From Octopus vulgaris (taxonomy: Eukaryota), in NCBI GenBank assembly GCA_951406725.2, contig OX597842.1:28148001-28212000 (forward strand): DNA of 64,000 nucleotides, read 5' to 3'. The translations under genes were made by a program, and so were the position numbers. The notes beneath the pieces are model-generated. The model was not told the DNA's origin, made no database searches, and saw only the letters and a list, made by a program, of their open reading frames with translations. Of the stretch, positions 22,495 to 63,923 are shown in pieces; position 1 is the stretch's first letter, and each line of letters starts with the position of its first letter.

Positions 22495-22566
22495 CAAGTG
22501 GCTGCCATTTACCTGCCAACTTTTGGGACACCCTATGAAGATGCTTCTCCTCTACCATTACAGACT
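22495..22566 (-). CDS. Gene A exon: Death domain N-terminal helices (72 nt)
   Basis: tatttcag| ... |gtgagt, phase 1-1. Encodes ESVMVEEKHLHRVSQKLAGKWQPLG (L..W..LG death motif) and joins the terminal exon in frame. Confidence 0.85.
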
Positions 22567-24899: not shown

Positions 24900-24950
24900 C
24901 AACAGATTCTGCAACCGTCTGGACTGCTTTTTCTTCAGACTTTGGACACA
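24900..24950 (-). CDS. Gene A linker micro-exon copy (51 nt)
   Basis: cttatttcag| VCPKSEEKAVQTVAESV |gtgagt, phase 1-1. Identical to 25203-25253. Confidence 0.65.
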
Positions 24951-25202: not shown

Positions 25203-25253
25203 CAACAGATTCTGCAACCGTCTGGACTGCTTTTTCTTCAGACTTTGGACACA
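25203..25253 (-). CDS. Gene A linker micro-exon (51 nt)
   Basis: Consensus AG/GT sites, symmetric phase 1, no stop. Fits between the RING exon (phase 1 end) and the Death exon (phase 1 start). Confidence 0.7.
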
Positions 25254-29156: not shown

Positions 29157-29299
29157 CAAATCCACTTTTGCTGCGTATGTGTTGTCGACATATGGGGCAT
29201 TGCTTAAATGTCATTTGAGAACAGCAATTCTGACAAATAACGGTATGTTGACATGGATAGAGTGTGACAGTAGCCTTTTTCTCTTGACACCACCGACAC
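29157..29299 (-). CDS. Gene A exon: RING-HC (C3HC4) finger of Mind bomb/IAP type
   Basis: ccacag| CRWCQEKKATVTLYPCQHTVICQNCCSQMTFKQCPICRQHIRSKSGF |gtaag. 143 nt, phase 2-1. Confidence 0.92.
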
Positions 29300-30290: not shown

Positions 30291-30466
30291 AGTGATTGTA
30301 AAAATGTTTTTAATTTTTCTTTCAAATGTTGATTTTCTATGCAGTCCAATGGGGTCACTTTCTTATCATTACGATGGTATAAGCTGGCTCCATGGCTGGC
30401 AAGATAACTCAAAACTACTATTCCAGAGAGCCTCCTATCCATGTCCAGTTGGAGCTCTCTGCAGCA
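30291..30466 (-). CDS. Gene A exon: terminal ankyrin-like repeat and linker
   Basis: ttgcag| CCRELQLDMDRRLSGIVVLSYLASHGASLYHRNDKKVTPLDCIENQHLKEKLKTFLQS |gtaagt. 176 nt, phase 0-2. Resembles the pre-RING segment of Mind bomb proteins. Confidence 0.88.
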
Positions 30467-32534: not shown

Positions 32535-32744
32535 CTCATCTAAAATAGGAATGCGTTTCACCTCAGAATGAAATTCCTCTTTCTCTGCTGCAATATGCAA
32601 ACAATTATTGCCATCCTTGTCAACGGCATTCATCTTTGCACCGCACGTGATGATTTCATGGACTATTCCGAGGTGGGCTGCATACACGGCTTCCAGTAAG
32701 GGTGTTCTTTTATCATCGTTCTCAATATCCAGTTTCACTGAATC
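32535..32744 (-). CDS. Gene A exon: ankyrin repeats
   Basis: cacaaag| DSVKLDIENDDKRTPLLEAVYAAHLGIVHEIITCGAKMNAVDKDGNNCLHIAAEKE...ILDE |gtaagt. 210 nt, phase 0-0. Confidence 0.9.
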
Positions 32745-35392: not shown

Positions 35393-35429
35393 CTGGGCCA
35401 GCATTGAAGCCACCACATCATGGTGTTGC
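35393..35429 (-). CDS. Gene A short exon (37 nt), ankyrin helix
   Basis: actttcag| (K)QHHDVVASMLAQ |gttagt. Phase 2-0 bridges the 38117 and 32744 exons and completes an ankyrin repeat. Confidence 0.8.
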
Positions 35430-38116: not shown

Positions 38117-38373
38117 TTTTGAACTGCCAGATGGAGAGGGGTGTCACCGTCTTCGTCCACCTTATTGGCATCGATGCCATTCTGTTGCAGGAGAAAATCA
38201 ATAACTTCCTTGTGTCCATGAGTAGAGGCAAGATGTAGAGGGGTGTCACCTTGCTTGGTCTCAGCTTTAACATCCGTGTCTTTATGTTGCAGGAGAAGTT
38301 CAACAACGTCCTTGCTTCCATAGCCCGAGGCAACATGGAGAGCTGTTGCACTAAAATTATTTCGCTGATTAAC
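38117..38373 (-). CDS. Gene A exon: ankyrin repeats (most 5' exon found)
   Basis: tttag| VNQRNNFSATALHVASGYGSKDVVELLLQHKDTDVKAETKQGDTPLHLASTHGHKEVIDFLLQQNGIDANKVDEDGDTPLHLAVQ |gtaagt. 257 nt, phase 0-2. Confidence 0.92.
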
Positions 38374-39496: not shown

Positions 39497-39679
39497 CAGT
39501 CCGCAGTGAAGATTGTTTTTGTGCTGAAAAGTTTGAAAATTTGCTGTTTTGGTCGTGGAGGCCACTTCTTTTCTGCTGTTCTTTCCCCCTTGTTTCAAGG
39601 GGGAAGTGACGAAAAGACATGAATTTGCAACCAGTCTCCTCCGAGTCGGAGGAAAACGTTGAAAATTTGTTTGAAGGCG

Positions 39680-41207: not shown

Positions 41208-41226
41208 GTTTTAAACATTCGACTAA

Positions 41227-44200
41227 ATTTTCACATTCTCGTTTAAACTCGGTTGTATAAATACTCGCGGCCTGGGGTCGTATTGGAAGCAAGGCTACCT
41301 CCTTAACGACCTTAGGTCGCATCGTTTGGATGTAGTGGTAATTACCGAATCCAGACTGAGTGGGCTGCAGGCTTTTTCGGCCCTTCTAAACGGCTACGAG
41401 AAATACATTTCTCCCTGTCGACCTGGAGGGGGAGGAGGAGTGGCAGTGCTGGTCAGGAAAAACCTGGATTTAGAGATTAGAACTGTCTTTATAGATCCGG
41501 AAGGCAGGTTGGTCGTTTTGGATGTGACGCACAGCAGTGGTAAAGTGTTCAGGCTGGTCGCTGTCTACGCTCCCTGCGCAGGAAAAGCCGGGCAGAAAGA
41601 GTATTTCAAAAGCCTAGAGAATTTTCTTGGCACGTCGAACACGTTAGTATTGCTAGGTGACTTCAACATAATTTGCGATGCAAGCGTAGATTATGTTGGC
41701 TCGAGAAAGAATACGAGGGGATTACCTCACCTCAACGATATGCTAAGTCGTTTCGAATTGGCAGATAGATTCAGACTGGACCATCCAGACACTCCAGAGT
41801 GGACCTGGGCAAGAAACGACGGGTCGTCCAGATCTTATATCGATAGAATCATAACTAGAAGGAAAGATAAGAAAATACTTAGCTGTCCACAACACCATAT
41901 CGTCAGCTACAGCGATCACAAATTAGTGACCTGTACGCTCGACATAGATAGCATGTGTAGACGAGGTACCGGTTACTGGAAGCTAAACAAGTCACTATTT
42001 GACTGTGAAGCCTACAGGAATCGGATTAAACAATTAGTAATGAGGGCGTTAACCGGATCCATTATCAACAATAAATGGTGGTACGCCCTGAAAAGAGCCA
42101 TCAAATTTGAGTCAATTAGGTTTAGCAAAGAACTAGCTAGTGCTAGAAACAAAGTAGAAAAGGAACTAGTTAAGGCAATAGAGGAGGCAATGAGGTCAGG
42201 CAGTGCATCGAAAGTGTTAGCGGCGAGGTTAGCACTAGACCAACATCTCCAAGCTAAACATGAAGGGTGCATTGTCAGGGCTAAGATCCGTGCAATGAGA
42301 CAGGAAGGGATCAACGCAGCCGGATGGGCCCGGGTGGTAGAGGGCCAGCGTGGCAACAGCTCAACCATTCGATCCTTGACGGGCCCAAATGGTCGATTAG
42401 TAAACGAACCCGAGGAGATGTGCAAGGTGTTTCATGATCATTTCGCCCAGCTATTCGGGAGGAGCGGCGAGCTGGAGCGCGGGGAGAAGCTCGCAGACTT
42501 CCTAGCCGGTTCGCCGCGTCTATCGAGGCCGGACGCGGAATCTTGTGAGGCGCCGATCACAGCCAAAGAAGTCGAGGATATGTTGGCAGAATGCGGCGGG
42601 GACAAATCGCCGGGACTCGATGGTCTGCCTTACGAACTCTATAGTAGCATGCCAGACTTGTTTGGGCACCTACTTGCATGCGTGTACACCAACTGGCAGC
42701 AGAACGGGAGAATTCCTAAGTCTGTGAGCCGAGGGGTGGTAGCGTTGTTAAGAAAGGACCCAAACAAGGGGGATTTAATTGATAATTTCCGGCCTATCAC
42801 TCTGCTTAACGCAGAGTTGAAGATCTTGGCCAAGGTCTTAGCAAAAAGGTTGGCGAGGGTCGTGGGTGAACTTGTTGGCGAGGCGCAAACTTGCGCCATC
42901 CCTGGAAGGACCATCCAAGACAATCTCCACTTTCTACGCTATGCCTTAGAAAGGGTAAATAGGATTCCTGGCAAGGGTGGGGCTATGGTCCACTTGGACC
43001 AATCGAAAGCGTTTGATAGGGTGGACCATCAGTATCTGGCGGCGGTCCTCGCGGCGGCTGGCTTCGGCCCGACCTTCCGCGGATGGATCTTCGCTTTATA
43101 CAGCAACATCGAATCGGTAGTTCGGGTAAATGGTTTCCTTTCGGAACCGTTCAGCATTGAACGTTCGGTACGTCAAGGGTGTCCTCTCTCCCCGCTTCTC
43201 TACGTTTTGGCCCTCGAGCCGTTGCTGAGGAGGTTGGAAACTATGAGAGGCACCCCGCAAGATCTAGGGTGCGGAAAGTCAGCTTCGGCGTATGCGGACG
43301 ACATCACCGTCATCGTTTCCCGAGTCGAGCACCTACAGTGGGTGGGTGAGGCCTTAAGGGACTACGAAGCGGTGGCAGGAGCGAAAGTCAACCGGGATAA
43401 ATCGGTCGGCTTGCAACTCGGCACCTGGAGGGGCAAGTCGATGTCTTCCGACAGCGTCGTAGGACGTTGGACGGAAGGACCGGTGAAAATGCTTGGGATC
43501 TGGTTAGGTCCAGATCTCCAGATAGAGAAGAATTGGAGCGAGGTGGCGAGAAAGGTGGCTCTCCTAACTCAGACATGGTCTGAACGGAATCTGTCCTTGA
43601 AAGGGAAGGCGGAGGTTGCAGAAGTGTTTATCGCCTCTGTAATCACTTACCGCCTAACCGTAGTGCCTTGCCCCGATTCGTGGCTGAACAAACTGGAACG
43701 CATGCTCTTTCGCTTTTTGTGGAGGGGCAGCAGACCTCTTGTAAGGCGCTCTATTTGCTGCCAAAAGCCGCTGAACGGTGGGTTAGGGATGCCGTGGCTA
43801 AAAATGCGCAGACATGCGCTCAGGCTAAGGCACCTCTGGATTTACCTGGACGGTGAGCAGGTGTGGTCTCCGTTTGTCAAGCTGTTATTTCCACAGTTCA
43901 CATCGTTTAACGAACTGAACCCATGGATCAAGTGTAGACCGAGGTTGGGCATGTGGCATGCAGAGTGCTATCAGGCACTCGTGCTTCTCTCCCAGTCGGG
44001 CAACGCCGGTGGCGGGGCTACTACCGCGTTCTTCTATAGAGGGTTAGTAGAGTTTAAGTGTGACGACGTCCTAGGAGAAACTCTGGGCTTCGACGAAAAT
44101 CAACTGGCCAGCCTGTTCCAAAGAACATTCGGTCCGGGGCCTATGGATAATTACCAAAAGTCCCTGGCCTGGCAATGTTACAGAGGAGCTTTACCGGTTC

Positions 44201-44643
44201 GAGATAAGCTCTTTAGACATGGGTGTGCACCTTCGCCGGTTTGTGCAAGATGTAAGAGGGACAGTGAAACTGTCCTGCACGCGATTGTGCAATGCCCCAA
44301 GGTGACTGAACTCTGGACTTATGTCGAACACCTGCTGTCGCATTCGAGAAGAGTACAACTGTCGAGCGAATCTGTAATTAAGATAGTTCCGCCGACCTTC
44401 CTGAATAGGGAGGAGCGAGCCTGTTTTCTCTCGGTAGTTGCTATGGCGAAAGAAGTAGTGTGGAAGACGAGAGTAAAAGGAATTGCAACAGGCATGTTTA
44501 TCTCCAGTCTCGAGCTAATCGACTTTTTCGTTTTCCACATGAAACGGAAAATAAGGCTGGAGAAGAAATGCCTGTCGCAAAGTGTGTTTCGTAAAAGATG
44601 GAAGTCTACAGCAAGTATGTTGCGAGTGAAAGAACCTGTTTAA
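41227..44643 (+). CDS. Tx1/L1 ORF2: APE endonuclease, RT, C-terminal zinc finger; intact, no initiating ATG
   Basis: Open from the stop at 41224. Motifs CINTRGL, ITESR, GDFN, SYIDRI, SDH, YWKLN, KSPGLDG, DQSKAFDRV, RQGCPLSP, YADD, CARC...HAIVQC. Confidence 0.95.
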   Translation: MFTFSFKLGCINTRGLGSYWKQGYLLNDLRSHRLDVVVITESRLSGLQAFSALLNGYEKYISPCRPGGGGGVAVLVRKNLDLEIRTVFIDPEGRLVVLDVTHSSGKVFRLVAVYAPCAGKAGQKEYFKSLENFLGTSNTLVLLGDFNIICDASVDYVGSRKNTRGLPHLNDMLSRFELADRFRLDHPDTPEWTWARNDGSSRSYIDRIITRRKDKKILSCPQHHIVSYSDHKLVTCTLDIDSMCRRGTGYWKLNKSLFDCEAYRNRIKQLVMRALTGSIINNKWWYALKRAIKFESIRFSKELASARNKVEKELVKAIEEAMRSGSASKVLAARLALDQHLQAKHEGCIVRAKIRAMRQEGINAAGWARVVEGQRGNSSTIRSLTGPNGRLVNEPEEMCKVFHDHFAQLFGRSGELERGEKLADFLAGSPRLSRPDAESCEAPITAKEVEDMLAECGGDKSPGLDGLPYELYSSMPDLFGHLLACVYTNWQQNGRIPKSVSRGVVALLRKDPNKGDLIDNFRPITLLNAELKILAKVLAKRLARVVGELVGEAQTCAIPGRTIQDNLHFLRYALERVNRIPGKGGAMVHLDQSKAFDRVDHQYLAAVLAAAGFGPTFRGWIFALYSNIESVVRVNGFLSEPFSIERSVRQGCPLSPLLYVLALEPLLRRLETMRGTPQDLGCGKSASAYADDITVIVSRVEHLQWVGEALRDYEAVAGAKVNRDKSVGLQLGTWRGKSMSSDSVVGRWTEGPVKMLGIWLGPDLQIEKNWSEVARKVALLTQTWSERNLSLKGKAEVAEVFIASVITYRLTVVPCPDSWLNKLERMLFRFLWRGSRPLVRRSICCQKPLNGGLGMPWLKMRRHALRLRHLWIYLDGEQVWSPFVKLLFPQFTSFNELNPWIKCRPRLGMWHAECYQALVLLSQSGNAGGGATTAFFYRGLVEFKCDDVLGETLGFDENQLASLFQRTFGPGPMDNYQKSLAWQCYRGALPVRDKLFRHGCAPSPVCARCKRDSETVLHAIVQCPKVTELWTYVEHLLSHSRRVQLSSESVIKIVPPTFLNREERACFLSVVAMAKEVVWKTRVKGIATGMFISSLELIDFFVFHMKRKIRLEKKCLSQSVFRKRWKSTASMLRVKEPV

Positions 44644-47075
44644 TCGAGAATGTGAAAAAGGAGAAAGCAAAGTCTTCAGTGTGAGGATGTGGTTTGTGGG
44701 GTCAACCGCGTCCTCCGCTTCATTTTTTTGTTAATCACTCATTCTCATTTAATTGTATATATATTAATTGTTTGTTTATTCATACGTTTCGTCTCATTCG
44801 ATACCCTGACCCCAACGTTTGTTTTGTCCCCTCTTTTTCTCAACCTTATGGTGAATAAAGAAATACTCTCTCTCACCCATTCTCCTTATGCTCTCTCTCT
44901 CTCACCCTTTTTCCTCCTCACACTGTATTTTTCTATCAGTATTTCCCCTTCTCCCATCCTCCCTTTTATTCTCTCACCCTATCTCTCTCTCTGTATTTTC
45001 CCCCTCTCTCATTCTCTCACTTATTCTTTTACCCCCTCTCTCTTTCTGTATTTTCCTGTCTCTTATTCTTTTACCCCCTCTCTCTCTCTGTATTTTCCTC
45101 TCTCTCATCCTCCCTCTTATTCTCTCTCACCATCTCTCTCTCCCATTCTCCTTATTCTCTCTCACCCTCTCTCCCTCTGACACTGTATTTTTCTCTCTCC
45201 CCGTCTTGGGTGGGCGACACGGGTGGAACGGAGGTTTTTGGAAATTTTGTTTTTCTAATTTTCGCTTTTAAAATGCGTCCTTCCTTTCTCTTTGATTTCC
45301 AAATAAGCTTTTTTAAATACTTCGAAATCAAAACTGGGCGCAGCCGTACCTTAAATAAGCAGTCTATTCACCTGCTAGAAATAGCAGCCAAATCTCACAC
45401 AAACTCTTTTTCGCACATTTTTTTCTATTTGTAAATTTTTATTTTTTCCATAATCGATTCATAGAATCCGATTATATCGCATTATTATTTCTATTCGTAG
45501 GGGTTGTGATGAGTTTCCACAAAAATCCCAAACTGGTCGGATTTGTTTCTTGGCGATAAAATTTCAGAGAAATTTCCCGCGCTAACCCCCCCCCCCAAAA
45601 AAAAACAGGTATTATATATACTGTGTGGCAAAAAGGGAAAATAAAGGGTTCGTTTTATTTATAGACGACATTGATTGGTTGAAATTGCAGAAATTGAAGA
45701 AAAAAAACAACAAATATCTTACAAACTATAGAATTTTCTCAAGAAAACCAAGAGAAAAAGATGTTTTATAAACACATTCTACCAGTATATGAAGTTTAAA
45801 AGTGTTTAAGTTACGTGGAAATTATTTTAAAAAACTGCCGTTCAAACGGAAAAGATCCCCATCTAGCCCTGTCATATTGTGTATGTTATGCTGAATCTCC
45901 CTGTGAACTACATTAAGGGTATGTGTGCCTGTGGAGTACTCAGCCACTTGTGCATTAATTTCACGAGCAGGCTGTTCCATCGATCATATCAAAAGAAACA
46001 AATGTTGTCATAACCGGCCGAGTGCTCCTAATGTGCTTTTGTCTGACCCATGCAAGCATGGAAAAAGAGATTTTAAAACGATGATGATGATTAGAAAAAT
46101 AACCCTGAAATATTTCCTCAGGAAAATATTTCCCACACAAGTTTCGATGTTAAGCGAGAAGGGTGGAGCAAACCAAACGACATTTCTGCGGCGCTTCCTT
46201 TCCTGGTGTCAGGGCCTGGCATGTAGGAGAGGCAGTCCTTAAATCCACTCCATGCCAGTGCCTCGTTGTAGAAGGGGCAGCAGCGTCAAAGATATCTTGG
46301 TTCGAGGACAGATTCGAGATCCTCTTGCTTACACCTCTCACTAGGTTCTTGAAAAATATAGGGCTGGTGCCAGTTCTAATGCAAGACATTCTCTGGTTTG
46401 GCTTGTGATAAAGCTTGTGTCTACCAGAGCACAGATCGAAAGTAACATGGAAGAAAGTTACTGTGAGGAGTTTAGTCTTGTGTTGAGGTCCAGAAGGCAA
46501 GTTGCTGAAATGGGAAACTAACGAATTGTGGTTCTAATCGTTCTGCACATTTATCAGTGTGATAACTGAGGTATATTCGGCGATATTGTGGGGAGGAAAT
46601 TTGTTGTTTGTGGACCATACAGCTCTTTTGGATTAAAATTCCTCTCGAATCAATTTAGTTTCGAAGGCAGCCCAAGCATCTGATTATGTAAATGAGGTTT
46701 TGGGGTGTGCAAGGGACGTTGGATTTGATTTTGAATATTTGCCCTTGTCTGAAATGGAATTTCGATCCTTCTAAAAGATTTTCTGCAAATAGGTGAACCA
46801 CACTTTACAACTCTTGCATCTGTTGTTCTGGGGAATAGTTTGGCATCGGTGAGAATCTTCAACAAGTAAGATTGAATAAAGAAGACTCATATACCCCCAA
46901 ATACAGACCAAATAAATAAATATGAACCCATATTAAAAATAAAGGACTTACCCCATCTAATGTAGGGCATAAGCCAGAAAAAAAAAAATAGAGAGAACAA
47001 ATAAAAATTTACAGATTTACCTCCCCTTAACTGTAAAATATATGAATGAACAATTATCTCCACTTGCCGTATATA

Positions 47076-47650
47076 TTTTTTTCAACTCTCAGTTTGATAA
47101 GCAACTCGAAACCGGTCCTTCAATTATTTTGAAAGGACAAAACCTTATTTTGTACAAAATTATATATCTTTTTTTCAACTCTCAGTTTGATAAGCAACTC
47201 GAAACCGGTCCTTCAATTATTTTGAAAGGACAAAACCTTATTTTGTACAAAATTATATATCTTTTTTTTCAACTCTCAGTTTGATAAGCAACTCGAAACC
47301 GGTCCTTCAATTATTTTGAAAGGACAAAACCTTATTTTGTACAAAATTATAAATCTTTTTTTTTCAACTCTCAGTTTGATAAACAACTCGAAACCGGTCC
47401 TTCAATTATTTTGAAAGGACAAAACCTTATTTTGTACAAAATTATATATCTTTTTTTTTCAACTCTCAGTTTGATAAGCAACTCGAAACCGGTCCTTCAA
47501 TTATTTTGAAAGGACAAAACCTTATTTTGTACAAAATTATATATCTTTTTCTTTCAACTCTCAGTTTGATAAGCAACTCGAAACCGGTCCTTCAATTATT
47601 TTGAAAGGACAAAACCTTATTTTGTACAAAATTATATATCTTTTTTTTTT
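47076..47650 (+). repeat. ~95-bp hammerhead-like tandem repeat x6
   Basis: Same unit as 11566-11860, six copies. Confidence 0.92.
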
Positions 47651-47763
47651 CCATGACTCCAATATACCCCTAAATCCTGTGAAACAAATCTTCTGATTTT
47701 TTCATCATTTCTCTTTTTATATATATCCACCATGTGTTTCTCCACTAAAATATCTTCTACTCC

Positions 47764-47796
<33 letters not shown>

Positions 47797-47815
47797 TACA
47801 TAAATATATATGTGT

Positions 47816-47868
<53 letters not shown>

Positions 47869-47982
47869 ATATATATATATACATACATACATATATACAC
47901 ACATATATATACATATATATATACATACATATGTATGTATATATATACATACATATATATATACGTACATATATATATACAT

Positions 47983-48015
<33 letters not shown>

Positions 48016-48635
48016 CATACATACATACATATATATATACACATATGCATATATATATATATATATACACATACATACATACATACATACACATATATAT
48101 ATACTTTATTTAAAGCATATTACTCTACCACTGGTATTTGAGTACTCTTTTTTCCACCTTGTTTCACATTTATGTGTTTACTCCGGTATATATATATATA
48201 CACACATACATATATATATATATACATACATACATATATATATTAAACTGTTAAGAGTAGATATTAGACCTTGATCTTAGCCATAAGACTGAGAAGCAAT
48301 ATCTATGTGTGTGTGTGTGTGTGTGTTTCCATGCTTGTCTCCCTTAACTGCTTGACAACCAATGTTAGTATGTTTACATCCCCATGACTTAGTAATAATA
48401 CTGATTATTCATTTTTATACTTTTTATGATCTAGTTATATGTTTTAAAAAAATACATTTTATTTTATATTTATGATTTGGTTTATGTCTATCATTGTTTG
48501 AATTGCATAATAGTGGTTTTATCTCGAATTTATAGATATTATATATTTATATTGTAAAATTTGATTTAATACTAAATTGAATTTTCCCCTGTAAGTTTGG
48601 AGTTATACTCCCTAATATTATTATTGTATATATAT

Positions 48636-50180
48636 ATCATCATCATCATCATCATCGTTTAACGTCTGCTTTTCATGCTAGCATGGGTTGGACGATTTGA
48701 CTGAGGTCTGGCGAATCAGACTCCAATATGATCTGGCAGAGTTTCTACAGCTTGATGCCTTTCCTAATGCCAACCACTCCGAGAGTGTAGTGGGTGCTTT
48801 TACGTGCCACCGGCATGGGGGCCAGTTTGGTGGTACTGGCAACGGCCACACTCAAATGGTGCTTTTTATGTGCCACCTGCACAGGAGCCAGTCCAGTGGC
48901 ACTGGCAACGATCTCACTCGAATGTTTTTTTCATGTGCCACCAGCACAAGTGCCAGTAAGGCGACGCAGGTGACGACCACACTCGAATGGTGTTTTTAAC
49001 TTACCATCGGCACGAAGGCCAGCTTGTTGCTCTGGCAACGATCTCCCTCGTATGGTACTCTTAGCGCTCCACTAGCAACGGATACCAGTCACCAAGTTTG
49101 ATTTCGACTTCAATTTCACTTGCCTCAACTGGTCTTCACAAGCAGAGTTTAGTGTCCAATGAAGAAAAGGCAAACATAAGTGGACTGGTTACCCCCTAGC
49201 ATAGGCCACAAGGTTATGGTCACACTTGCGCTTGCCGAGTCTTCTGCAGCACAGCATATTTCCAGAGGTCCCGGTCATTAGTAATTGCCTCAGTGAGGCC
49301 CAATGTTCTAAGGTCATACTTCACCACTTCATCCCAGGCCTTAATAGGTCTACCTCTTCCACAGCTTCCCTCAACTGCTATGGTGTAGCAGTTTTTCACA
49401 CAACTATCTTCATCAATTCTTGACACATGACCATACCAGTGCAAACGTTTCTCTTGCACACCACAACTGATGCTTCTTAGGTCCAACATTTCTCTCAAGG
49501 TACTTACACTCTGTCGGGTATGAACACTGACATTACACATCCATTGGAGCATACTGGCTTCATTTCTTGTGAGCTTACGCATATCCTCAGCAGTCACGGC
49601 CCAAGTTTCACTGCCATGTAGCATGGCTGTTTGTACACATGCGTCATACAGTCTGCCTTTTACTCTGAACGAGAGGCCCTTTATCGCCAGCAGAGGTAAG
49701 AGCTCCCTAAACTTTGCCCAGGCTATTCTTATTCTAGCAGCTACACTTTCAGCACACCAACCCCGGCTACTGTCTTGGTCACCTAGGTAACGGAAGCTAT
49801 CAACTACTTCTAGTTTTTCTCCCTGGAATGTGGTGGAAGTTGGTCTCTGCGCATTTTCAGTGTTTATTGCTCCTGAGCATCTGCCACATACAGAAATTAT
49901 CTTCCTAGTTAGCCTTCCTTTGACATTGCTGCACCTCTTATGTGTCCATAGCTTACACTTGGTGCATCTTATAGAGTTTCTACCTACGCCTTTTCTACAG
50001 ATTGAGGAGGGCCGTCTACCTGAAGGTGTTTGTGATTTGTCTACCTTCCTACTTATTAGGACTTCAGTTTTAGCTAGGTTGATTCTAAGGCCCCTTCGAT
50101 TCTAATCCTTGTTTCCACACCTGAAACTTCTCCTCCAGTTCTGATAGTGACTCAACAATTAGAGCAAGGTCATCAGCAAT
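48636..50180 (-). mobile_element. 5'-truncated RTE LINE (duplicate of 13598-15140)
   Basis: Same boundaries and flanks as the unit A copy. Confidence 0.92.
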
Positions 50181-50559
50181 ATACATACATATACACAACT
50201 GTATACCCATATATATACATATATAAATACATATATGCAATTGTCAGATTTACAATTATTCCAACACATCTTCAGGTTCTATTTGAAAATATTATATATC
50301 TAATTTTACATCCCTTTAAAAATACGCAATACAATTAAGCATTAAAGATTAAAAATTAAGAAGAAAAATGATACTTTGAAATATTAAGAATTAAAATTTA
50401 TTAATTATACATTATAAATATGAATTAGTATATATACATCAATCATGTAAAATCAAGTATATGAGAAATACAGAATGTGAGATATAAGATTAAACATCAG
50501 AATAAAAATGTGTGTTTAAATGTGATATATAACAAGAAAAATTCAAATACACACATTGA

Positions 50560-50996
50560 AACTCCGACGTCTGGCAGCTGACTTGGCAGACACCCCTAAA
50601 ATTATTAACCATCTTACAAACAATAACTCTGAGCACCTTTTCAAACTCCACCTGTGGACATGTTTACAAAGTCAGAAAACAGCACAGCTCCCATGACTTT
50701 AGGAAACATTTTTTCATGCTGAGAGTTGCTGAAGCATGGAACAAACTGCTGGCATCAGTTGTTAGTTGTCGGAGCACTGCATCCTTCAAAACTTCCATGC
50801 TTTCTGAGATTTGCCAACACTACACCTGATTTTCTCCCCTCCATACACACATAAGCATGTATCTGACTCATACATTATTCGCTTTCCAGACATTTGTACA
50901 TTACTGCATATACTTTATATGCACTGTCTGACAAGTTGTGGTGCACCTGAGCACTGTATACAATAATTTCATTATTATTATTATTATTATTATTAT
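50560..50996 (+). mobile_element. CR1-like LINE 3' end (duplicate)
   Basis: Paralogous to 15525-15922. Confidence 0.8.
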
Positions 50997-51064
50997 ATGA
51001 GGATTTGGTACAAGTAGTGAAGTTGACAACCAATCTAAGACTTTTTACAAAAGATCATTCTGAT

Positions 51065-51850
51065 GAAAGAGAGATGTAGGAAATAGTGACATTTCTGTCG
51101 AACAAAGTCTAGGTGCATTCAAAATCAACCTCACTTACAACCTTTGTCTTTAATTCCAACTGATTTTGTATAGGCTGACCTTGCAAATAACTTCACAGAC
51201 CCCGTGAGGCTTGCAAACAGACCCATTATTACTCCAACAAATGAAATATCACAATTTGTGAATGAATTCATGTTGACCAGGATCCCTGGCGAGGTAAAGA
51301 TATACAGAAAGCTCAGATACAGTTGATAACGAAGCTCTGTACCTAATCAAATTCATCAACAAACTCCTACCATCAGAGTTTCCATGGACATATCCTCACC
51401 TCAAAGACAAGAGGCTGCATTAGGTTTTCGAAGAATTTAGATGTTAAACAAGGCCATTGCAATGACACAGGCTACGTTATTATCTGCTTGCACGATCTTA
51501 TTATTGTGGCTGAGGTTGCTTGTGGTCCTTCTGCAGGATCAATGCTGGTAATCTCAAGGATTCCGCATGGGTCTCAATGACTGGAGTTCCCATTCACAGT
51601 TACCACATAAACAATTTCCTGTGGAACCAGTCTCTGCCTTGACATGCAGCAAGGCACAGGGACAGACATTTAAACCAAGCAGAATATATCTTCCAACGCA
51701 ATTCTTCTCCCGTGGTCAGCTGTAAGTTTCCTTTTCTAGATTTTGGATGAAGGCTAATGTAAAAATATTGGCTGAGACAAATAGAAACTGTATATTGACT
51801 GACAATTGTGTCCACAAGGAGGTTCTACTTGAAAACAAAATGTGCATTTT
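51065..51850 (+). mobile_element. Helitron PIF1-like helicase fragment (duplicate)
   Basis: Paralogous to 15990-16780. Confidence 0.85.
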
Positions 51851-52094
51851 AAGTAAGTTTCACAAAATGGAATTTACAACTTTCGTTTTTTGAAAAATTC
51901 CACAGGATATTTAAACTGTCTATATAACAATGGAAGTGTTTAGGGAGATGCTGGGACTTACAACAACAACAACAACAAATGAAATTTGAAAGTTTGTCTT
52001 TATTTCCACAGTTTATCTAGAACAATGAGGGAACCAAACCAGTAAAGGGGTCTACAGGTGGTAGAGAGATCTGCTAGAATTAGTAACCAAATCC

Positions 52095-52872
52095 GGATCT
52101 TTACCTTTCGACCGGCAGATTTAGAAAATGATTTTTGTAACTAAACACTTTCAAACTTCGTATTCTGGTAGAATGTGTCGTATAAAACATCTTTTACTCT
52201 TAGCGTTTTTGAGAAAAGTTTATATTTACAAAGTAATTTCGTGTTAAATTTGTCGTATTTCGGTAATTTCAACCAATCAATGGCGTGTATTCATCTGAAT
52301 AAAATTACTGCCGTTGTTTGTCAACAACAACTTCTGGCGGTGTATATTTCGTTTGTCACTGTTATTTACGACATATTTCATCTCAGTTATGTTTGTATGA
52401 AAACGAGTCTATCTGAAACATGTTTACTTCATGGCACCACCAGAATCGTTCGTGCATTTCTACTGGTTTTAGTTATGTTTTTTCCTGTTTTTCAGCTACC
52501 CTAACCCTAACCCTAAAACCTTAGCCCTGACACTAAAACCCTAGCCCTAACACTAAAACCTTAACTCTAACCCTAAAACCCTAACCCTAACACCTTAGCC
52601 CTAACACTAAAACCCTAGCCCCAGCACTAAAACCTTAACTCTAACCCTAAAACCCTAACCCTAACACCTTAAAGCTAAAACCAGTACAAACGCACGAATG
52701 ATGTCATAAATAACAACAACAAACGAAATATATACCACCAGTTGTTGTTGACAAACATCATCATCATCATCATCCTTTAACATCTGCTTTGCATGCTAGC
52801 ATGGGTTAGCAGTAATTTTATTCAGCTGAATACACATCATTTCAAAATCTGCTGGTCAAAAGGTAAAGATCC
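52095..52872. mobile_element. Foldback element, unit B copy: interior inverted, right arm partly deleted, short CCCTAA array
   Basis: Same TSD CCAAATCC (52087-52094, 52873-52880). The core reads CCCTAA rather than TTAGGG. Confidence 0.9.
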
Positions 52873-53050
52873 CCAAATCCTACTCCATTCATAACTTATC
52901 ACCTTAAAGAAGGACACCTTAAACAATGTGGTTCTACGTTCTCTATACTTATGAAAAAGACAGGATGGTCCTGGATGGAAGGCATTTGATAATAGGTCTG
53001 TGGTGAAGATAGACTTACGACTAAGCAACAGCAACAATTTACAAAGAAAT

Positions 53051-53256
53051 TCAATTGAATTCTGATGATAAATATTTGAGTGCATCTTGACATTCAGTTC
53101 TTACAAGAGCTTCTTTTAATATTTGAAGTGTATGTTTCTCTGGATCATTACCTCGCTGCCATCTGAGCAGCATACGGTAGCCTTGTTCCACAACGTCAAG
53201 AGGATAGTCCTGCTTGATGATGTCCATGTCATTTTGTGGAATTCCTAATTCCCTTC
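53051..53256 (-). CDS. Gene B terminal exon: Death domain C-terminal part
   Basis: GRELGIPQNDMDIIKQDYPLDVVEQGYRMLLRWQRGNDPEKHTLQILKEALVRTECQDALKYLSSEFN*. Same acceptor and length as A. Confidence 0.88.
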
Positions 53257-55089
53257 CTGCAAAAGAAAGAAGAAATAATTGCAACAGCATTAGCGATAAT
53301 ATAAAACCTGTGTACTGTAGGCTGTATTAATTAGGACAAAGAAATTATGTGAATAGAAGAATGAGAAATACTTAAGAAACAGGGAAATTAGAAGACATTG
53401 TTATCTATTTCTAAAGATGTTGACAAAAATATCAAACAATTTGAAATAAAGGCTGGAGAAGGAGAAGAATATTTTAAAGAATTGAAAATTACACATGAGA
53501 AAATGTCTGGTGAACAACTGGCAGGAGAAGTGTTTGTGTGGGTAGCAGTGTATGAGAGCCTAAAGAATTGACAAAGACCACCAACAGATAATTTCATCCA
53601 TCCGTCCATTTTCTCAGCCCTCTATTCATTAGAGGTTTGTAGGGGAAGAGTCTTCAGGCACCTCCTTCATATGATCCTATCAGAGGCAACCTTCATTAGA
53701 ATTTCTGAAAGGATTTCCAAGCATCGCCAATTGAAACTATGGATATCATCCAACCATTTCATTCTTGCTCTACCCCTAGGTCTCCTGTCGGTTGGCTCAG
53801 CTTGAAGAATCCCTCTTGTAGTTCTTTCCTGTGATATTTTAATCACATGCCAGGATTACTGGAGCTGTGAATTCTCAATGCAGAGAAGCAGTCGCTTGAC
53901 CTGGAGAAACCCCAAATCTCCAGCCTGCACACCTTGTTGAGTAACGTTACTCCAGAGACTCTTTGGAGGAATACAATCTCAGTTGTTTGATAACATCGTG
54001 TGATCAATGCCTGAAATAGTCATTTGCGATGTCTTTCCACCTATGATTAATAAATATTTAAAAATTATCAACATTCAGAAATATCTCAAAAGTGGGGATT
54101 GTGTATCTGAATGATTTCAACCACCCCAAAGTTAAAATATAATACTGTTAGGTAAATATCACATTATAGAGGGCACTGGCTTAAGGTTTTTGGATTCATG
54201 ACTTATAACAAGAACTTTCACTGGATCAAGGCCACAATTTCAAAGAATCTAATACAGGAGAGGCCCTAGAGTAAACAAAGCAATGAGAAGAGTTTTACCA
54301 ACATCTACACCATACACCTACAACACTCGGGTCCTGATAGAATCACTGCATTCACAAACAAGCAAGTTTACAGGGAGGGCAGGTTAAGGTTAGGGCTGAG
54401 GAAGGACTTTGTATGTGGCAAATATACAGGAATAGTTCATAGGAACAAGTATGAAAGACATAGTTGATAGTTTCTGTTACCTAAAGGACAGAATTAGAAG
54501 TAGAGGAAACTGTTCTGAAAGCACAGTAGTTAGAAGGAAAACGAGATGAAAAATGTACAGGGAGTTGTTATGTCTACTGGCAACTAAGGGATTTTGTCTC
54601 CATATGAGGGAGAGATTGCACTTTACAAATACATCTTATGCAATGTTACATAGAATGTGAAAGATGCAATGGAAACTGCCAGGAAATGAGGTGAGCAGAC
54701 ATCACTAGAAGTGTAATGTTAATGTGTTGAAAACTTGGAGCCAAATAACTGGATCTCAGAAGAATCTGAGATAGTGTACAAGAAAAAAGATAATGGTATA
54801 GATATAGAAGGGACATGGCAGATGAAATCTGGGTAAAGAAGTGCCTGGAATTCAAGTGGAAAGAAACAAGCGATCAAACTGGACAAAGGACCACAACAAC
54901 TCTGGGAGAAGTCGTCTGACCATTACAAACTTAGAAAAATGGATGTAAGGTGATGATGATAATGGACCTGGTGTTAGTGGATTCATTTTATCCCAGTATA
55001 TGACTGGTATATTTTGTATGACACCCAGAGGTATAGCAAGCTGGCAATGTTGTAGACGATGTCCTTTCTTAAATTACATAAATAATTCC

Positions 55090-55958
55090 TGAGTGTGAAC
55101 TGCCATGCTACATGGCAGTGAAACATGGGCCATGACTGCTGAGGACATGCGTAGGCTTGACAGAAATGAAGGTAGTATGATCCGCTGGATGTGGAATGCC
55201 TGTGTGCATACACGACACAGTGTAAACACCCTGAGAGGAATGTTGGACATGAGAAGCATCAAATGTGGTGTTTAAGAGAGACGACTACGCTGGTATGGTC
55301 ACATATTACGTATGGATGAGGACAACTGTGTGAGGAAGTGCCACTCCCTAACTGTAGAACGAAGCTGTGGAAGAGGTAGACCCAGGAAGACATGGAATGA
55401 GATGGTGAAGCATGGCCTTTCAGAGGCAATGGCAGGAGACCGAGACCTTTGGAAATATGCTGTGATTGAGAAGACCCAGCAACTAAAGTGAGATCGCAGC
55501 CATGGCCGATGCCAGTGTTGCATGTCCAGCCCATTTAAGAGTATCCTTAATGCATCGGGTGACATGATATGCTTGAGAAGACCTGTTGAGTCAAGTATAA
55601 CTAAAATTGCAGCTGTGGCCAGTGCCCCACGACTAGCCCCCGTTCTGGTGGCACATAAAAACCATCATCCGAATGTAGTCGATGCCAGTGTCATCTGACT
55701 GACTCCTTGTGTTGGTGGCACGTAAAAAGGCCATCCGAACATGACTGATGCTAGGTCCACCTGACTGGCTCCTGTACTGGTGACACATAAAAAGCAGCCA
55801 CTACACTCTCGGAGTGGCTGGCATTAGGAAGGGCATCAAGCTGTAGAAACTCTGCCAGATCAGATTGGAGCCTGGTGCAGCCACTAGCTCTCCAGACCTC
55901 AGTCAAACAGTGCAACCCATGCCAGCATGGAAAACAGACGTCAAATGATGATGATGAT
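55090..55958 (+). mobile_element. RTE LINE 3' fragment (duplicate of 20633-21501)
   Basis: Near-identical sequence with (GAT)n tail. Confidence 0.88.
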
Positions 55959-56949
55959 GGTTTCTATCAGCTGACTCAGGGGATATTCTCATGATCCCTT
56001 GAGTCAGGGATCAAAGGTTCAAATCTAATCCCCAGCACTGCTCAATGTACCTGGTAAAGACATTTCTCTATGCTTCACTCTATGTAGATGTATATAGGTA
56101 CCATGGGGAGGTAGAAGACATTGCTGTAAATAATAGGAGCATTGTATAAATGATATTTTATGTTGTGTTAAACTGTCAGAGAATGGAAAATGGGATATTG
56201 TGATGTTCATACCTTTCCATGTGACATTTGTAATGTAAAGGAGAGTGAAATGATTTCAATTGAGAAACAAGATCAAGTTGAGTTTGAATTTTCTGTTGAG
56301 ATTCTTTTTTTCTAATATAAATGAGTGTTTCATTAACTTACAATGCTGAGTTCAATCCAGCCATGAACACAATCAACAATGGGGCCTGTCTTCTATAGAG
56401 ACAGGAAATATATGTTGACCTGGGACTAAATAATTACAATAAATATAGAAAAACAGACTGGCCAGGGGAGAGATGACAACATGTCCCACACAATGCACAC
56501 TCTCATTTTAAAAAGGTTACATTTGATAATGTGGTCCTCTTCACCCAAGAGAAAGAGCGATGGCACATCTGGAACCCTTTCCCCTTAATTCTGGAAGATT
56601 AAGGCAGATACCTGCCGAAATAAACATCAACAACAACACTCTACTAGTAAACTTACTAAAAGTGTAAACAAGCAAAAACATTGTCATTAATTCACCTGTT
56701 TACTCTTAAACAACAATATTTTTGAGTCCCCTTTTACAAACGATAGTATTAACTCTACTGGACCTTCTAATTTATACATTTTACAACCGTGCTGACGTCT
56801 GTAGATATTTTATGAAATTTCAGTGATAGCTTTACTTTAAAGCTAAACTTTCAATTGGAAATTAGGAATGGAACCGGTTCTCAGTCATTCAAACAAACAA
56901 AAGTTTAGCTGAAAGTAAAATTTATAGAAATTGGGTATTTTATACTCAC

Positions 56950-57021
56950 CAAGTACCATCCATTTACCTGCCAACTTTTGGGACACCCATTGAAGATGCC
57001 TCTCCTCTAGCGTTACAGACT
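56950..57021 (-). CDS. Gene B exon: Death domain N-terminal helices (72 nt)
   Basis: ESVTLEERHLQWVSQKLAGKWMVLG. AG/GT intact, phase 1-1. Confidence 0.85.
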
Positions 57022-58927
57022 CTGAAATAAATATTTCCAAATTTTACACTTCATAGCACAATTTCCCGATCTCTGTTAATGGTTTATATTTTATTATTGT
57101 AAGACATTCCTATCATCAATGGACAACTTCTGACCACTATAGGTTTGGTTGACACTTTTATACTTCCTACAGTGGTCCTATATAATGGCTCAATATTTAG
57201 GTCCATAACAAAATAGACTGACCTTCCTAAGCCTCCTTTTTCTATTAAGACATCCTACTTAATCTAACCATGTTGCAATCATCTTATTTAATGATCACAT
57301 GTTAACACCTTTTATCTTTCTTCTCTCTTGTATCCATGCTAAACCTATGACATGGCATTGTCCCCTCACCACTGGACTTCACTTAATCAACATTCCCCTC
57401 ATCTTTTGCTTAATTCTGATGTCAACCAAGCTGGTCATCAACGACCTTGACACAAACTCATGTCACACCTGTTATCTTTGTCAAACGTTGCTGCTTTTAA
57501 TCTTTAATTTTAAACTATGCAACTCACAGTTCACCAGAATTTCATCTGATTCAGGAAATATTTAAGGACTCCTTAATGAAATGCTTTTCTTTCCTGATGA
57601 GCAATGATTAGTTCTACACAGGTGAAACAGAAAGTGATAGCAAGTATCCTAAAACACTGTATACTTGCACAAAACAAGCATTTCAAAGTTTTATACTTCA
57701 TAGTAAAGTTTCTTTGTCTCTTTTAATAATCTATATTCCATTTTTGTAAGGCATTCATATCATCAATAGTCAATTGGTGACCACTATGCTTTCGGTCAAC
57801 ACTTTCTAAGCTGTTACTATATAATAGTTCAATATTTAGAACCGCAGCAAAATAGGCAAACCTTTCTAAATCTCATCTTTCTATTAAGACATCCTATATA
57901 CTAATCTAACAATTCTGAAATTCTCTCACTTAGTTATCACTTCATAACACTCTTTTTCTCTTAGTTTTGTCTTTCCTTTGTTATGTCTGTGCTGGTCATA
58001 TGACATGCCATTGTCCTCTCATCTCGAACCTTCACTAACCAATATTCTTCTCATCTTCTACTAAATTCCAGTCTCAACCAAACAGGTCTTCAAAGATCTG
58101 GCCACAAAGGCATGACACATTGCTTCAGGAAGGATAAACATACCCCAGCTCTCATTTTTATATGTTACTGTTGGTAATCTTTAATTTTAACTGCCCACAT
58201 CACACTTCACCAGAATACCACCTGATTCAGGAAAGATCTGAAGATATTTCAATGTCATTCATCCTCCTTAATAAGCAGCTTTTTCTTTTTCCAGGTGAGC
58301 AATGATTAGTTCTACACAGGTGGAGCAGAAAGTGATAACAGGTATCCTGAAACATTACATTTGTATAAAACCTCCTTAACTTAAAACTGTTCATCTACAC
58401 ATTATTGCAAAGGAGTTATACCTGAAATGGGACACTAGAATTCATTCTCAAGAATATATAAGACTCGCTAAGAGTCAGATCCTTAAACTCTCAGTCGAGA
58501 TTTTGTCATTGAAATTCTTACATTACAAAGCTGACTGTGATGTTGTAGGAAGTACTGTTGTCCTTAATTATCAGTTTCCCAAGATACTTATAAATCATTA
58601 ATCTCATATAAAAGCTGACAACTGAATATAAAAAGTTGATGTTTACTGATGGGACCTTGGAGATTTATTGATATTTCATTTATATTTCAGTAAAACGTAT
58701 TAATCTTATGTTGCAGACAGTACTCTTTTGATGTGGGACAGGTTTCCTACTTGGATAAAGACAATATTCAGTGGGTGTAGTCATGGATATACTATCAAAG
58801 AGAAAAGACACCTGGGACATCTTTTATCATACGTCTGTCAGATTATGACAGATCTGGGTCGATACAACATTATTCCATTCCATAATGTCATGTGACAAAC
58901 AGACAGATCATCAAATCATATTCTTAC

Positions 58928-59049
58928 CAACTCTCCTTTTGCTTTCTATACATGTTTTATACTTGGGGAATCTTTCAGGTTGAGTTTTGCTACTATCTTC
59001 ACAGGGTTGTAACTCCATGCTGGCTTCACTCTCTTCACAAGGCATACAT
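58928..59049 (-). CDS. Gene B exon: degenerate RING homolog, still open
   Basis: ccacag| CMPCEESEASMELQPCEDSSKTQPERFPKYKTCIESKRRV |gtaag. 122 nt, phase 2-1. Flanks are homologous to the RING exon flanks at 29.1-29.4 kb. Confidence 0.75.
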
Positions 59050-59403
59050 CTGTGGAAAAAACATAAAACACATCCCACCTATAACATTCAGTTCTAACAA
59101 ATATTACATGTTTGTTTTATGTTTACAGTACAGAATATTATGAAACACCAGACTGACCAGAGTGAGGTGCATGGCTAAGTTGTTAGGCTTTTGGACTCAT
59201 AGAGTAAAATTGCGGTTTCAATTCCTGGACAAGGCGATGTGTAAAGTTCTTTAGCAAAACACTTCAGTCTAGGTTTGCCCTGCATACAAACCTGCCCCTT
59301 GTTATAGGTGAGTCCATGTTCATTGATCTACATCTTATCAACTTCAGATGTGTTCCTCCAAAACAATTTTATTTGCCTCAGTTGATTGGATCAAAACCCA
59401 AAC

Positions 59404-59695
59404 GAGTTAGTTAGTTAGTTAATTTGGCTCAAAAGCAAATTGCAAGGCCATGTAGAGGGACATGGAGTTAAGTACAGGGTGGTGTTCAAGTAAAGAGTTC
59501 AGGCCACTTGAGGTCAAGGGAGGCTTTGAACAAAGCGGTCATCGGCATCTTCACCATCTCATCTGGCAGCTTGTTCCACGGATCCGCAACCCGGACGGAG
59601 AAAGCTCCTCTCCCTCGATTGAGATGAAATCGTCGCAGGTAGAGCTTTTCGGAATGACCCCGCAGCCGACGCTCTGGATTCACCTTCTACTGAGC
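59404..59695 (-). mobile_element. CR1-like LINE 3' end with (CTAA)n tail
   Basis: RRLRGHSEKL...AFSVRVADPWNKLP...FKASLD motif. Confidence 0.8.
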
Positions 59696-60849
59696 TATGT
59701 GCATACTGTTTAGCTTCTTATAAGGACAGGTGTGATAAATTGAGCTCTTCGTCATTCACCACCTGATACACACCTGAAGTTACATATTGTAGGTCCCTTA
59801 AATCATGACTCAATACCAGATGCAAACTGGTCTGAGGATATCCTCGTCCATGAACCATGACAGATTTAAATCGAGATACAAATTATTGTTTAAAAATAGC
59901 CACAGTTTATGCAATAAAGTTCACTATTTTTGATTCCTAAGTTAAAAGTACTGATTCCAATCTCATTTGTTAAACCTGGACACATTCTTTACTGTGCAAT
60001 GGTGTTTTTAGCATGGCTGGCTACATTTTCTTTCACAAAGACCTTTTTCATTACCTTGGAGGTGGTGCGATGGTCTATGCTTGCTCAAGCTTTTCAGAAA
60101 TTGCTTGTGAAGATTTAAACCAGTCACAAGAGGAAGTTTTCTGCGACATAAAAGCACATCAACATTTACCATCCTCGAAACTTTTTAGAGCTGCATCTAT
60201 GAAAATGGTCACCTATGTTCTCATACTTGTGATTTCAATTACCCAATATTGATTAGGAAATCTTTCACTGGCCACAAAATGCAACCGATTTCCTTCATTT
60301 AATGTTAGATTCAAACTAATCCCAAGTAGTCCTCTCTCCCTTAAAAGGTAACAACACTTTCGATCTGCTATTTACCACTGCTCCTGAAATTATCAGCCTC
60401 AATAGTGATGAACCCTTAGGTGACTCTGATCATACTCCAGTCTTGCAAAAATATTTCTAATGGATAGAAAGAAAGCCACCATAACCTCCAAACTGCTTCG
60501 CTTTCCTGGAACTCCTACTGTACTGAGGTATAGTTCCCTGACTGGCTTCGACTTTACAATTCTGGAGATGTCAAGACTAACCTTCAGCACATCCATCCTT
60601 AATTCATGAATAAGTGTCGGTGCCATGCAAACGTTTTAGAAGCCTGAATATGTGAGAGACTGCCAGGAAATATCGATGAGATGCTGGACGTGATAAAAGA
60701 ACAGGGGATAAAAGAAGAAGGTGCAACATGGTACCCTGCCATATTAAAGGAGTGATAAATGTACCGTTTTCACTGCTACTGAGATCAAATTCCATAAAAC
60801 CTGTTGAATTCTGCAATATCGCAAGGCTAATTGAAGCATATGTGCAATT

Positions 60850-62661: not shown

Positions 62662-63427
62662 CAAATACATATACCCGAAAACAACCACCCACACATATAT
62701 GTATATATATATATACATACACATACATACTGTTAACTAAAATAGTATTAAGAATCATTAAAATTAAGATAATATTAATTGTTAATACAACGAAAGGGGT
62801 TGGAAGGGTAATTCGTAATATACAAAAAAGAGGGGCCTAAAAGGGTAGAAAAAGGTAAGGGTTAATAAAAGGCAAAGGTTGGGAAATATTGAGATAAAAT
62901 TTATAAGAAGGGTATAAACTCAAAACCCAGATTTACCATAACCAGTGTAAAGAAGATGTAGGTTATTTGCATAAGATACATAATTAGAAATTACACCACA
63001 TATTCCGTAAACAATCAGAAGACTAGGAAACCGTCCAGATATCAACACTTGTAAATTTTATCTGAATATTTTCCAACAGTAATCAGACACAAGAACAGGA
63101 GTAAAGAGGAGGACAATTTATTAAATGAACCTCTGGATATTACTGGTACAGATTTTGAGCCCAGGAGTTGAACTTGAAACACAAACGGATCAAAGTAAGG
63201 GGATGATTCTGCATTTAGCCCAAGGCCAGAGGAAAGAGGAAAATTACAAGAGAAGGGGGGTGAGGTTTTTACATGGAATGAAAGGAAGAAGGGAGAGGAT
63301 TTGAACCTGTAACGTTGAGGTAACGAAGGATGAGATGAAGTAAAGAATCCAGTCAGGTAACAACAACAACAACAACAATAATTATGATGATTAATTAATG
63401 AAGTTAGATTACAGTGTCATTAGAGTG

Positions 63428-63460
<33 letters not shown>

Positions 63461-63564
63461 GAAGCATGACGACCCATGGTGGGATTATGACATGAATGAC
63501 TCGAAACAAGAAAACAAAGATTAAAGAAACAGATTTGGATAATCCAAATCCATTGGGGACTTAC

Positions 63565-63923
63565 TTTTGAACTGCCAGATGGAGAGGGGTGTCACCCTCG
63601 AGGTTCACCTTATTGACATCCATGCCTTTCTGTTTCAGGAGAAAATCAACAACTTCCGTGCGTCCATGAGTAGAGGCAAGATGTAGAGGGGTGTCACCTT
63701 GCTTGGTCTCAGCTTTAACATCCGTGTCTTTATGTTGCAGGAGAAGTTCAACAACGTCCTTGCTTCCAAAGCGACAGGCAAGATGGAGAGCTGTCCAATC
63801 ATGTTCCGACACAGCATTAACATCCGTGTCTTTATGTTTCAGGAGAAGTTCAACAACGTCCTTGCTTCCATACCAACAGGCAAGATGAAGAGCTGTTGCA
63901 CTAAAATTATTTCGCTGATTAAC
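63565..63923 (-). CDS. Gene B exon: ankyrin repeats (one more repeat than A)
   Basis: tttag| VNQRNNFSATALHLACWYGSKDVVELLLKHKDTDVNAVSEHDWTALHLACRFGSKDVVELLLQHKDTDVKAETKQGDTPLHLASTHG...GDTPLHLAVQ |gtaagt. 359 nt = 257 + 102. Confidence 0.92.

Follow-up and report, generated by a model that had tools for sequence, protein, structure and literature searches.

Exon Chains at the Locus

The window, which is the whole 64,000-nucleotide stretch of Octopus vulgaris DNA analyzed here, carries two genes on the reverse strand, referred to as A and B. As shown in Table 1, each of them contains a variable ankyrin exon (exon V), a RING exon and two death-domain exons. From V onward, the chain of gene A comprises nine exons and encodes 400 aa (V, e2–e4, RING, two linkers, and two death-domain exons), and that of gene B encodes 252 aa (V, a degenerate RING, and two death-domain exons). 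Both chains have canonical splice sites throughout and no internal stops. Neither the 5′ exons of A nor the three constant exons missing from B were found within the window by tblastn with 12 paralogs or by blastn, and the DNA upstream of A contains a LINE and the downstream DNA of B. The RING of B keeps 4 cysteines, compared with 8 in three relatives. Either gene may be a pseudogene, since the 5′ exons of A are missing and B is without three exons and an intact RING.

Table 1. Coordinates of the exons and segments of genes A and B within the window.
Feature	Position	Strand	Remarks
Gene B, variable ankyrin exon V	63565..63923	-	359 nt; AG/GT; phase 0 to 2
Gene B, degenerate RING exon	58928..59049	-	in-frame 6-aa loss
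Gene B, death-domain exon 1	56950..57021	-	
Gene B, death-domain exon 2 with stop codon	53051..53256	-	Pfam Death
Gene A, variable ankyrin exon V	38117..38373	-	257 nt; phase 0 to 2; 2 full units
Gene A, constant ankyrin exon e2	35393..35429	-	absent from B
Gene A, constant ankyrin exon e3	32535..32744	-	absent from B
Gene A, Mind-bomb-like terminal ankyrin exon e4	30291..30466	-	absent from B
Gene A, RING exon	29157..29299	-	C3HC4 ligand pattern intact; closest solved relatives cIAP RINGs
Gene A, linker exon copy 1	25203..25253	-	51 nt, phase-1/1
Gene A, linker exon copy 2	24900..24950	-	51 nt, phase-1/1; peptide same as copy 1
Gene A, death-domain exon 1	22495..22566	-	
Gene A, death-domain exon 2 with stop codon	18605..18810	-	Pfam Death
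Intron after exon V of B	62680..63564		98.7% identical to A's 37250-38116; internal neutral yardstick
Old-paralogy segment of B	58480..60293		~70% identical to A 28708-31021; middle of mosaic
Recently duplicated or converted block	45059..57676		partner about 8947-23221; carries death-domain exons; non-coding 97-99.7% identical

A public O. vulgaris protein found by the death-domain search, CAI9744076.1 (712 aa), matches the exons of the window and fuses genes A and B, and exon V of B corresponds to its residues 119–238. In the last exon of B there is a GTAAGA donor-like site at 53105, absent in A, where CAI9744076.1 joins B to exon V of A.

A different in-frame RING loss from that of B was observed in the lineage of P0007 (O. 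sinensis) and P0137 (O. vulgaris), the member with many RefSeq isoforms, in which the RING lacks its last cysteine pair. Its presence in both species suggests a retained ligase-dead form. Tandem phase-1/1 linker mini-exons lie between the RING and the death domain, with two 51-nt copies in A (24900–25253). For one O. sinensis member RefSeq lists as many as 22 isoforms, and those examined differ in these linker units. The single-sequence fold of death-domain exon 2 had a pLDDT of 59.6 and was discarded. By inspection, no signal peptide or transmembrane part was apparent in the gene models or the fold.

Length and Repeat Units of the Variable Ankyrin Exons

The two V exons share a TAG acceptor and a GTAAGT donor and run from phase 0 to phase 2, so that the difference in size is exactly 102 nt (359 vs. 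257 nt), in agreement with the sequence-only reading of this DNA, whose quoted motifs were also all present in the two exons. Exon V of B consists of 3 full 34-aa units and the start of the next repeat. Tandem Repeats Finder independently reported a period of 102 with 3.1 copies at 63577–63892, and the Pfam scan found ankyrin repeats in this exon. The Rfam search gave no matches.

The units of B had been described as near-identical DNA. Units 1 and 2 are identical at 86 of 102 nt, with one uninterrupted match of 31 nt, and at the protein level only 24 of 34 aa are identical, so the description holds for the helix-2/linker half of the unit and not for the rest. The extra unit of B has its own hairpin and differs from the neighboring unit at 16 nt. 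We rejected the formation of B by simple tandem duplication of a unit of A, as the extra hairpin is unlike both hairpins of A. It resembles the internal hairpins of other paralogs, and since it is of the family's internal type, loss in A from a B-like exon or import into B would fit better and is likelier than a fresh duplication.

Family Membership and Relation to Mind Bomb

As judged from sequence matches and predicted folds, A and B are tandem paralogs in an octopus-expanded, Mind-bomb-derived family of ankyrin-RING-death-domain proteins. At least 24 named Octopus proteins were among the matches listed, and a representative search gave about 34 further candidates covering the constant region, of which the 10 looked up were all from Octopus. 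No non-octopus protein of the same architecture was present among the matches listed (the best 120 of 692 and the best 150 of 69,559).

The constant region (profile A2) gave one continuous match to MIB1 (8V0E, residues 246–381, E 4.7e-20). Moreover, the model of P0160 (pLDDT 86.6) superposed on 8V0E at a TM of 0.79 over the target, with other ankyrin proteins scoring better by E-value, and the members are publicly annotated as MIB2-like. The continuous match, the superposition and the source names together point to an origin from MIB. The terminal ankyrin repeats of MIB type followed by a RING are present, as indicated by the profile match, the fold, and the Pfam RING. There was no Pfam match to the MZM/REP region in P0001 or P0002, and the P0160 model is ankyrin from residue 3. 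The terminal coiled-coil RING3 is absent in A and B, in which a single RING is followed by the death domain. Some relatives (P0193 and P0207) carry a second RING at the end, where others have the death domain, and the PDB matches of P0193 were dominated by ankyrin proteins. NACHT or NB-ARC was found neither in the Pfam scans nor in the precomputed domains of the octopus matches. In the ESM Atlas all matches were below 0.9 and fell in ankyrin/RING and MIB clusters. Public gene models of the family can be chimeric, as in P0001. We found no earlier account of the family among the open-access listings and abstract openings searched; subscription papers and the supplements of genome papers may list an ankyrin/MIB expansion.

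Repeat Number Across the Family

To survey exon V, 66 octopus proteins were used, of which 48 gave the exon (16 had no start pattern and 2 no end pattern). These reduced to 13 distinct exons, and the length of all 13 was 52+34n aa. The numbers of full units were 1, 2, 2, seven times 3, 4, 4, and 7. The length of the exon therefore changes by whole units, in 34-aa steps, as had been proposed, and the repeat number is not fixed among paralogs. Differences in unit number recur in the records of three species. P0008, which was left out, has at least 5 units (one of them 33 aa long), and its end seems to be frameshifted.

A tree of the constant region was made with 19 of 33 sequences (5 failed the cap pattern, and in 9 the constant region was too short). 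Sister genes in this tree differed in unit number, with 3 vs. 4 in P0002/P0003 and 2 vs. 3 in A/P0160; for P0005/P0009 the numbers were 7 vs. 4, and this pairing was weakly supported. One unit is found in O. bimaculoides P0018 and several older members, and other branches show separate expansions, mostly of 33-aa units. On the other hand, neither of the two O. vulgaris/O. sinensis orthologue pairs differed in unit number (P0006/P0137, with 0 aa differences, and P0010/P0014, with 3), which is evidence against very fast turnover. By a consensus-identity proxy, used in place of T-reks, the repeat identity of at least 85% over 100 aa or more by which high-internal-conservation (HiC) receptors are defined was reached in 2 of 13 multi-unit entries (P0005 and P0009, at 0.88), and the values of A and B, 0.68 and 0.72, were below this level.

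Position-Specific Variability of the Repeats

The entropy of each position was calculated from 38 distinct units, after 5 units of two O. sinensis orthologues were dropped. We took positions 2, 3, 5, 13, 14, and 33 to be those randomized in DARPins, and positions 17, 18, 21, 25, and 26 to be the exposed back face. The former set agrees with the columns that vary in 6MOL. Entropy was highest at positions 13, 3, 5, and 14, all of them randomized in DARPins, and they map to the hairpin and the end of helix 1 in the P0160 model. The mean entropy was 2.74 bits in the DARPin set compared to 1.01 bits elsewhere (permutation P 2e-5). At the family level, variability was thus concentrated at the hairpin and first-helix positions, as anticipated by the sequence-only reading, and was not spread evenly over scaffold and surface among paralogs.

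Since any set of ankyrin repeats is variable at surface positions, the family was compared with a background of 127 repeats from 32 named non-octopus proteins. The entropy at the DARPin positions was 2.74 bits in the family vs. 3.43 in the background, and that of the exposed back face was 1.27 vs. 3.20, which means that the back face is unusually conserved. The nearest-neighbor changes between front and back were 57:14 in the family and 96:59 in the background (P 0.006); the repeats are related rather than independent, so these P values are optimistic. On these alignments, the variability of the front face relative to the back face is stronger than in unrelated ankyrins. Furthermore, the seven internal units of P0005 and P0009 did not vary at positions 15–30; ten positions did vary, 8 of them within 1–14.

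Divergence of Exons and Introns Between A and B

In the last two repeats, all 10 codons that differ between A and B are non-synonymous (12 nt changes), as noted earlier from the sequence. Taken alone, this count is borderline (simulation P 0.04–0.07), and for the whole exon V the pN was 0.082 and the pS 0.017 (Fisher P 0.083). The intron adjoining exon V differs at 11 of 863 aligned sites. Against this intron, 16 non-synonymous changes were observed in the exon vs. 2.5 expected (P 6e-9), a stronger signal than the codon count alone.

It had also been claimed that the scaffold is constant and that the ten changes bear on the binding surface, and neither statement held for this gene pair. Seven of the ten changes fall at positions 16–30 (helix 2 and linker) and two at sites randomized in DARPins, which make up 12 of the 49 residues compared; over these 49 residues the ten changes showed no enrichment at contact sites. 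The variability of the binding surface is accordingly a property of the family and not of the terminal differences between A and B.

The death-domain exons, for which the DNA differs by 12–14% and almost entirely at non-synonymous sites, were compared in the same way. All 9 nt differences in exon 1 are non-synonymous, and in exon 2 the pN was 0.158 and the pS 0.093. The introns around these exons differ at 2 of 654 and 63 of 3674 sites, and the intron divergence between A and B was 0.3–1.7% overall. Diversification of the output domain keeps pace with that of the ankyrin exon and is therefore not peculiar to the latter, where it had been placed before: the same non-synonymous excess is found in both. 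With the three exons pooled, the pN was 0.123 and the pS 0.043 (P 0.010), and none of the single exons reached 0.05 (P 0.083, 0.19, and 0.34); these values come from a single gene pair, the DNA of A and B. At 8 of the 10 differences in exon V, the states of A and B are each found again in other paralogs, which suggests conversion. The corresponding number for death-domain exon 2 was 12 of 20; most of the differences between the two genes are old states.

Mosaic Relationship of the Two Genes

Along the gene, the DNA identity between A and B is about 99%, then 70%, then 98%. In a purpose-made amino-acid test, pairs of sites were more compatible when close together than when far apart (P 0.0006 and 0.013), and the nearest paralog of A differs by module. 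The identity mosaic, the decay of compatibility and the module-wise nearest paralog point to ectopic conversion and exon swapping in addition to intra-exon crossover. Intra-exon unequal crossover, which had been suggested to shuffle specificity modules, can be kept as one mechanism and not as the sole one, because exchange between paralogs is also needed.

Proposed Mechanism and Alternative Explanations

We favor, with modest confidence, an explanation in which repeats are gained and lost in the germline and ectopic conversion takes place under diversifying selection, in a probable family of intracellular sensors. The evolutionary part, in which diversifying selection acts on the products of unequal crossover in the germline and of conversion, is probable on the comparisons given above. 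The immune part, an intracellular sensor or decoy which would signal through the death domain, stands about evenly balanced. Exon V would be the variable binding module of a protein consisting of ankyrin repeats, one RING, alternatively spliced linkers, and a death domain. Whole repeats would be added or removed by unequal crossover in the germline, within the near-identical DNA that encodes helix 2 and the linker; the simplest course for A is the loss of one unit by a B-like exon. Between neighboring genes, ectopic conversion and recombination in introns would exchange short tracts as well as entire exons, and new ankyrin faces and death-domain surfaces would be retained by diversifying selection. 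The concave ankyrin face may bind foreign or pathogen-modified proteins, with the death domain as the signaling part, and the ubiquitin ligase activity would be dispensable in some copies.

Among the alternatives, the one that survives best is churn under relaxed constraint, in which A and B belong to a cluster that is prone to recombination and made up of redundant MIB fragments, in part dead. Only whole-unit slips would then keep the frame, and conversion would fall in the exons because they are the sole homology left among old paralogs. The loss of the 5′ exons in A and of three exons in B, the broken RINGs of B and of P0007/P0137, and the variation of nearby non-coding repeats (a 95-bp repeat with 3.1 vs. 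6.1 copies) are in line with such churn, as are the non-significant single-exon tests and the pS of death-domain exon 2 (0.093), which is above the intron level. We nevertheless consider it unlikely, given that the pooled pN is threefold above the pS (P 0.010) and that the back face, which should be tolerant, is conserved while the front varies. Both chains also retain canonical splice sites and open frames, of which open frames alone are weak evidence, and one O. sinensis member has up to 22 RefSeq isoforms.

Expansions of F-box proteins in nematodes and of finTRIM proteins in fish are analogues for a second alternative, in which the members would be ubiquitin-ligase restriction factors: the ankyrin face would capture foreign proteins, the RING would mark them for degradation, and RING-dead copies would act as decoys or regulators. 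The RING of A, which keeps C3HC4 and matches those of cIAP1/2 best, and the descent of the family from an E3 ligase would suit this role. It is made rather improbable by the repeated breakage of the RING, with the death domain kept and diversifying, and by the position of the one RING of the death-domain members right after the ankyrins (in P0193 and P0207 a second RING lies at the end). In MIB1, the terminal RING3 alone is described as catalytically active (10.1101/2024.03.01.582834).

To much the same low degree we entertain a combinatorial receptor locus, in which one promoter would serve alternative V exons and RING/death-domain cassettes, in addition to the splicing of linker exons and the shuffling of repeats, with a repertoire that varies by individual and possibly by cell. 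Gene A lies downstream of B with its own 5′ exons missing, and every exon able to follow either V exon starts in phase 2; as the V exons run from phase 0 to 2, cassette splicing from a shared promoter could occur. The junction of B with A in the public model CAI9744076.1 is a further lead. In O. sinensis, XP_036370275 (X3) and XP_036370279-287 (X7–X15) have near-consecutive accessions and different paralogous 3′ cassettes, and a single locus is only presumed for them. If true, such a locus would provide a DARPin-like intracellular repertoire in octopuses.

An endogenous recognition code, with the ankyrin and death-domain surfaces co-diversifying for pairing with self or paralogs in development, neurons, or gametes, appears very improbable. 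It would accord with a death-domain surface that diversifies as fast as the ankyrin exon, with the stability of some orthologues between species, and with the many linker isoforms, and it is opposed by the lack of an apparent signal peptide or transmembrane part in the models or fold and by the link of similar repeat dynamics to host–parasite conflict in PMC5100051 and PMC4986451. Finally, an assembly artefact, with A and B as uncollapsed alleles or a misjoined duplicate, might be suspected from the large non-coding blocks of 97–99.7% identity and is scarcely credible in view of the middle segment, only about 70% identical and with a different RING type, the separate hairpin and 16 nt differences of B's extra unit, and the recurrence of unit-number variation in the records of three species.

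Comparison With Known Systems

The family is neither a canonical MIB nor an NLR. It resembles MIB1/MIB2 (8V0E) in having an ankyrin stack of similar size with atypical terminal repeats and then a RING. It differs from them in the absence of MZM/REP, in its one RING, which is often broken, in its many tandem copies, and in a death domain lying where the catalytic coiled-coil RING3 of MIB would be. The concave ankyrin face of MIB1 is described as highly conserved (10.1101/2024.03.01.582834), whereas that of the octopus family is variable, which is the reverse pattern.

Fungal NLRs with highly conserved ANK, TPR, or WD repeats (Podospora), as described in PMC4986451 and PMC13449251, have in common with the octopus family the variation of repeat number and a hypervariable concave ankyrin face. 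The proposed unequal crossover, the exchange of repeats between genes, and the coupling to death or effector domains are further likenesses. In contrast to the fungal proteins as described there, the octopus family is animal and MIB-derived, has no NACHT/NB-ARC, and carries its repeats N-terminal to the RING and the death domain. Moreover, most of its members are below 85% internal conservation, and the variation is seen between paralogs and not between alleles.

DARPins (6MOL; PMC8229355) are similar in their constant scaffold, the varied positions 3, 5, 13, and 14, and a variable repeat number. The octopus units are natural, however, and have 34 aa with one extra linker residue; variability is only moderate at their positions 2 and 33 and extends to positions 1 and 10. 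The zinc-finger array of PRDM9 is another animal tandem array in a single exon, in which the unit number and the contact residues change by unequal exchange. The octopus family differs from it in binding putatively protein rather than DNA, in forming a multigene cluster, and in having less homogeneous units.

No rearranging immune receptors are known in cephalopods. A binding surface variable in length and contacts, combined with a RING and a death domain, appears to be of a kind typically found in rapidly evolving sensors of foreign molecules. Repeats under concerted evolution are reported to be rare in animals (PMC5100051, PMC4986451) and often tied to host–pathogen conflict (PMC5100051). 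The conserved scaffold of a Notch-pathway ligase, turned into an ankyrin-death-domain protein with a variable face, would be a candidate for diversified intracellular recognition in octopus. The annotations "MIB2-like" and "ankyrin-3-like" at this locus conceal a distinct family and include fused gene models.

Repetitive Elements in the Window

A LINE on the forward strand (39623–44643) has an open ORF2 of 1138 aa with endonuclease, reverse transcriptase, and zf-RVT, and lies near the junction where the 5′ part of A is missing. It is preceded by five 31-bp repeats containing CCAAT (39111–39261), and a 21-nt inverted pair (41228–41248 and 44638–44658) lies on either side of its ORF2. A second LINE family is represented on the reverse strand at 226–3399, with endonuclease and reverse transcriptase, and by decayed fragments at 12451–13002, 14181–14906, and 49220–50101. 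A fragment of a Tc3-type transposase was found at 27060–27575. The 95-bp non-coding tandem repeat extends over 11566–11859 in the block of A, with 3.1 copies, and over 47076–47649 in that of B, with 6.1. In addition, an element that occurs at 17028–18426 and 52095–52872 has a TTAGGG-like satellite between inverted arms of 218 nt, and the interior of the copy in B is inverted relative to that in A.
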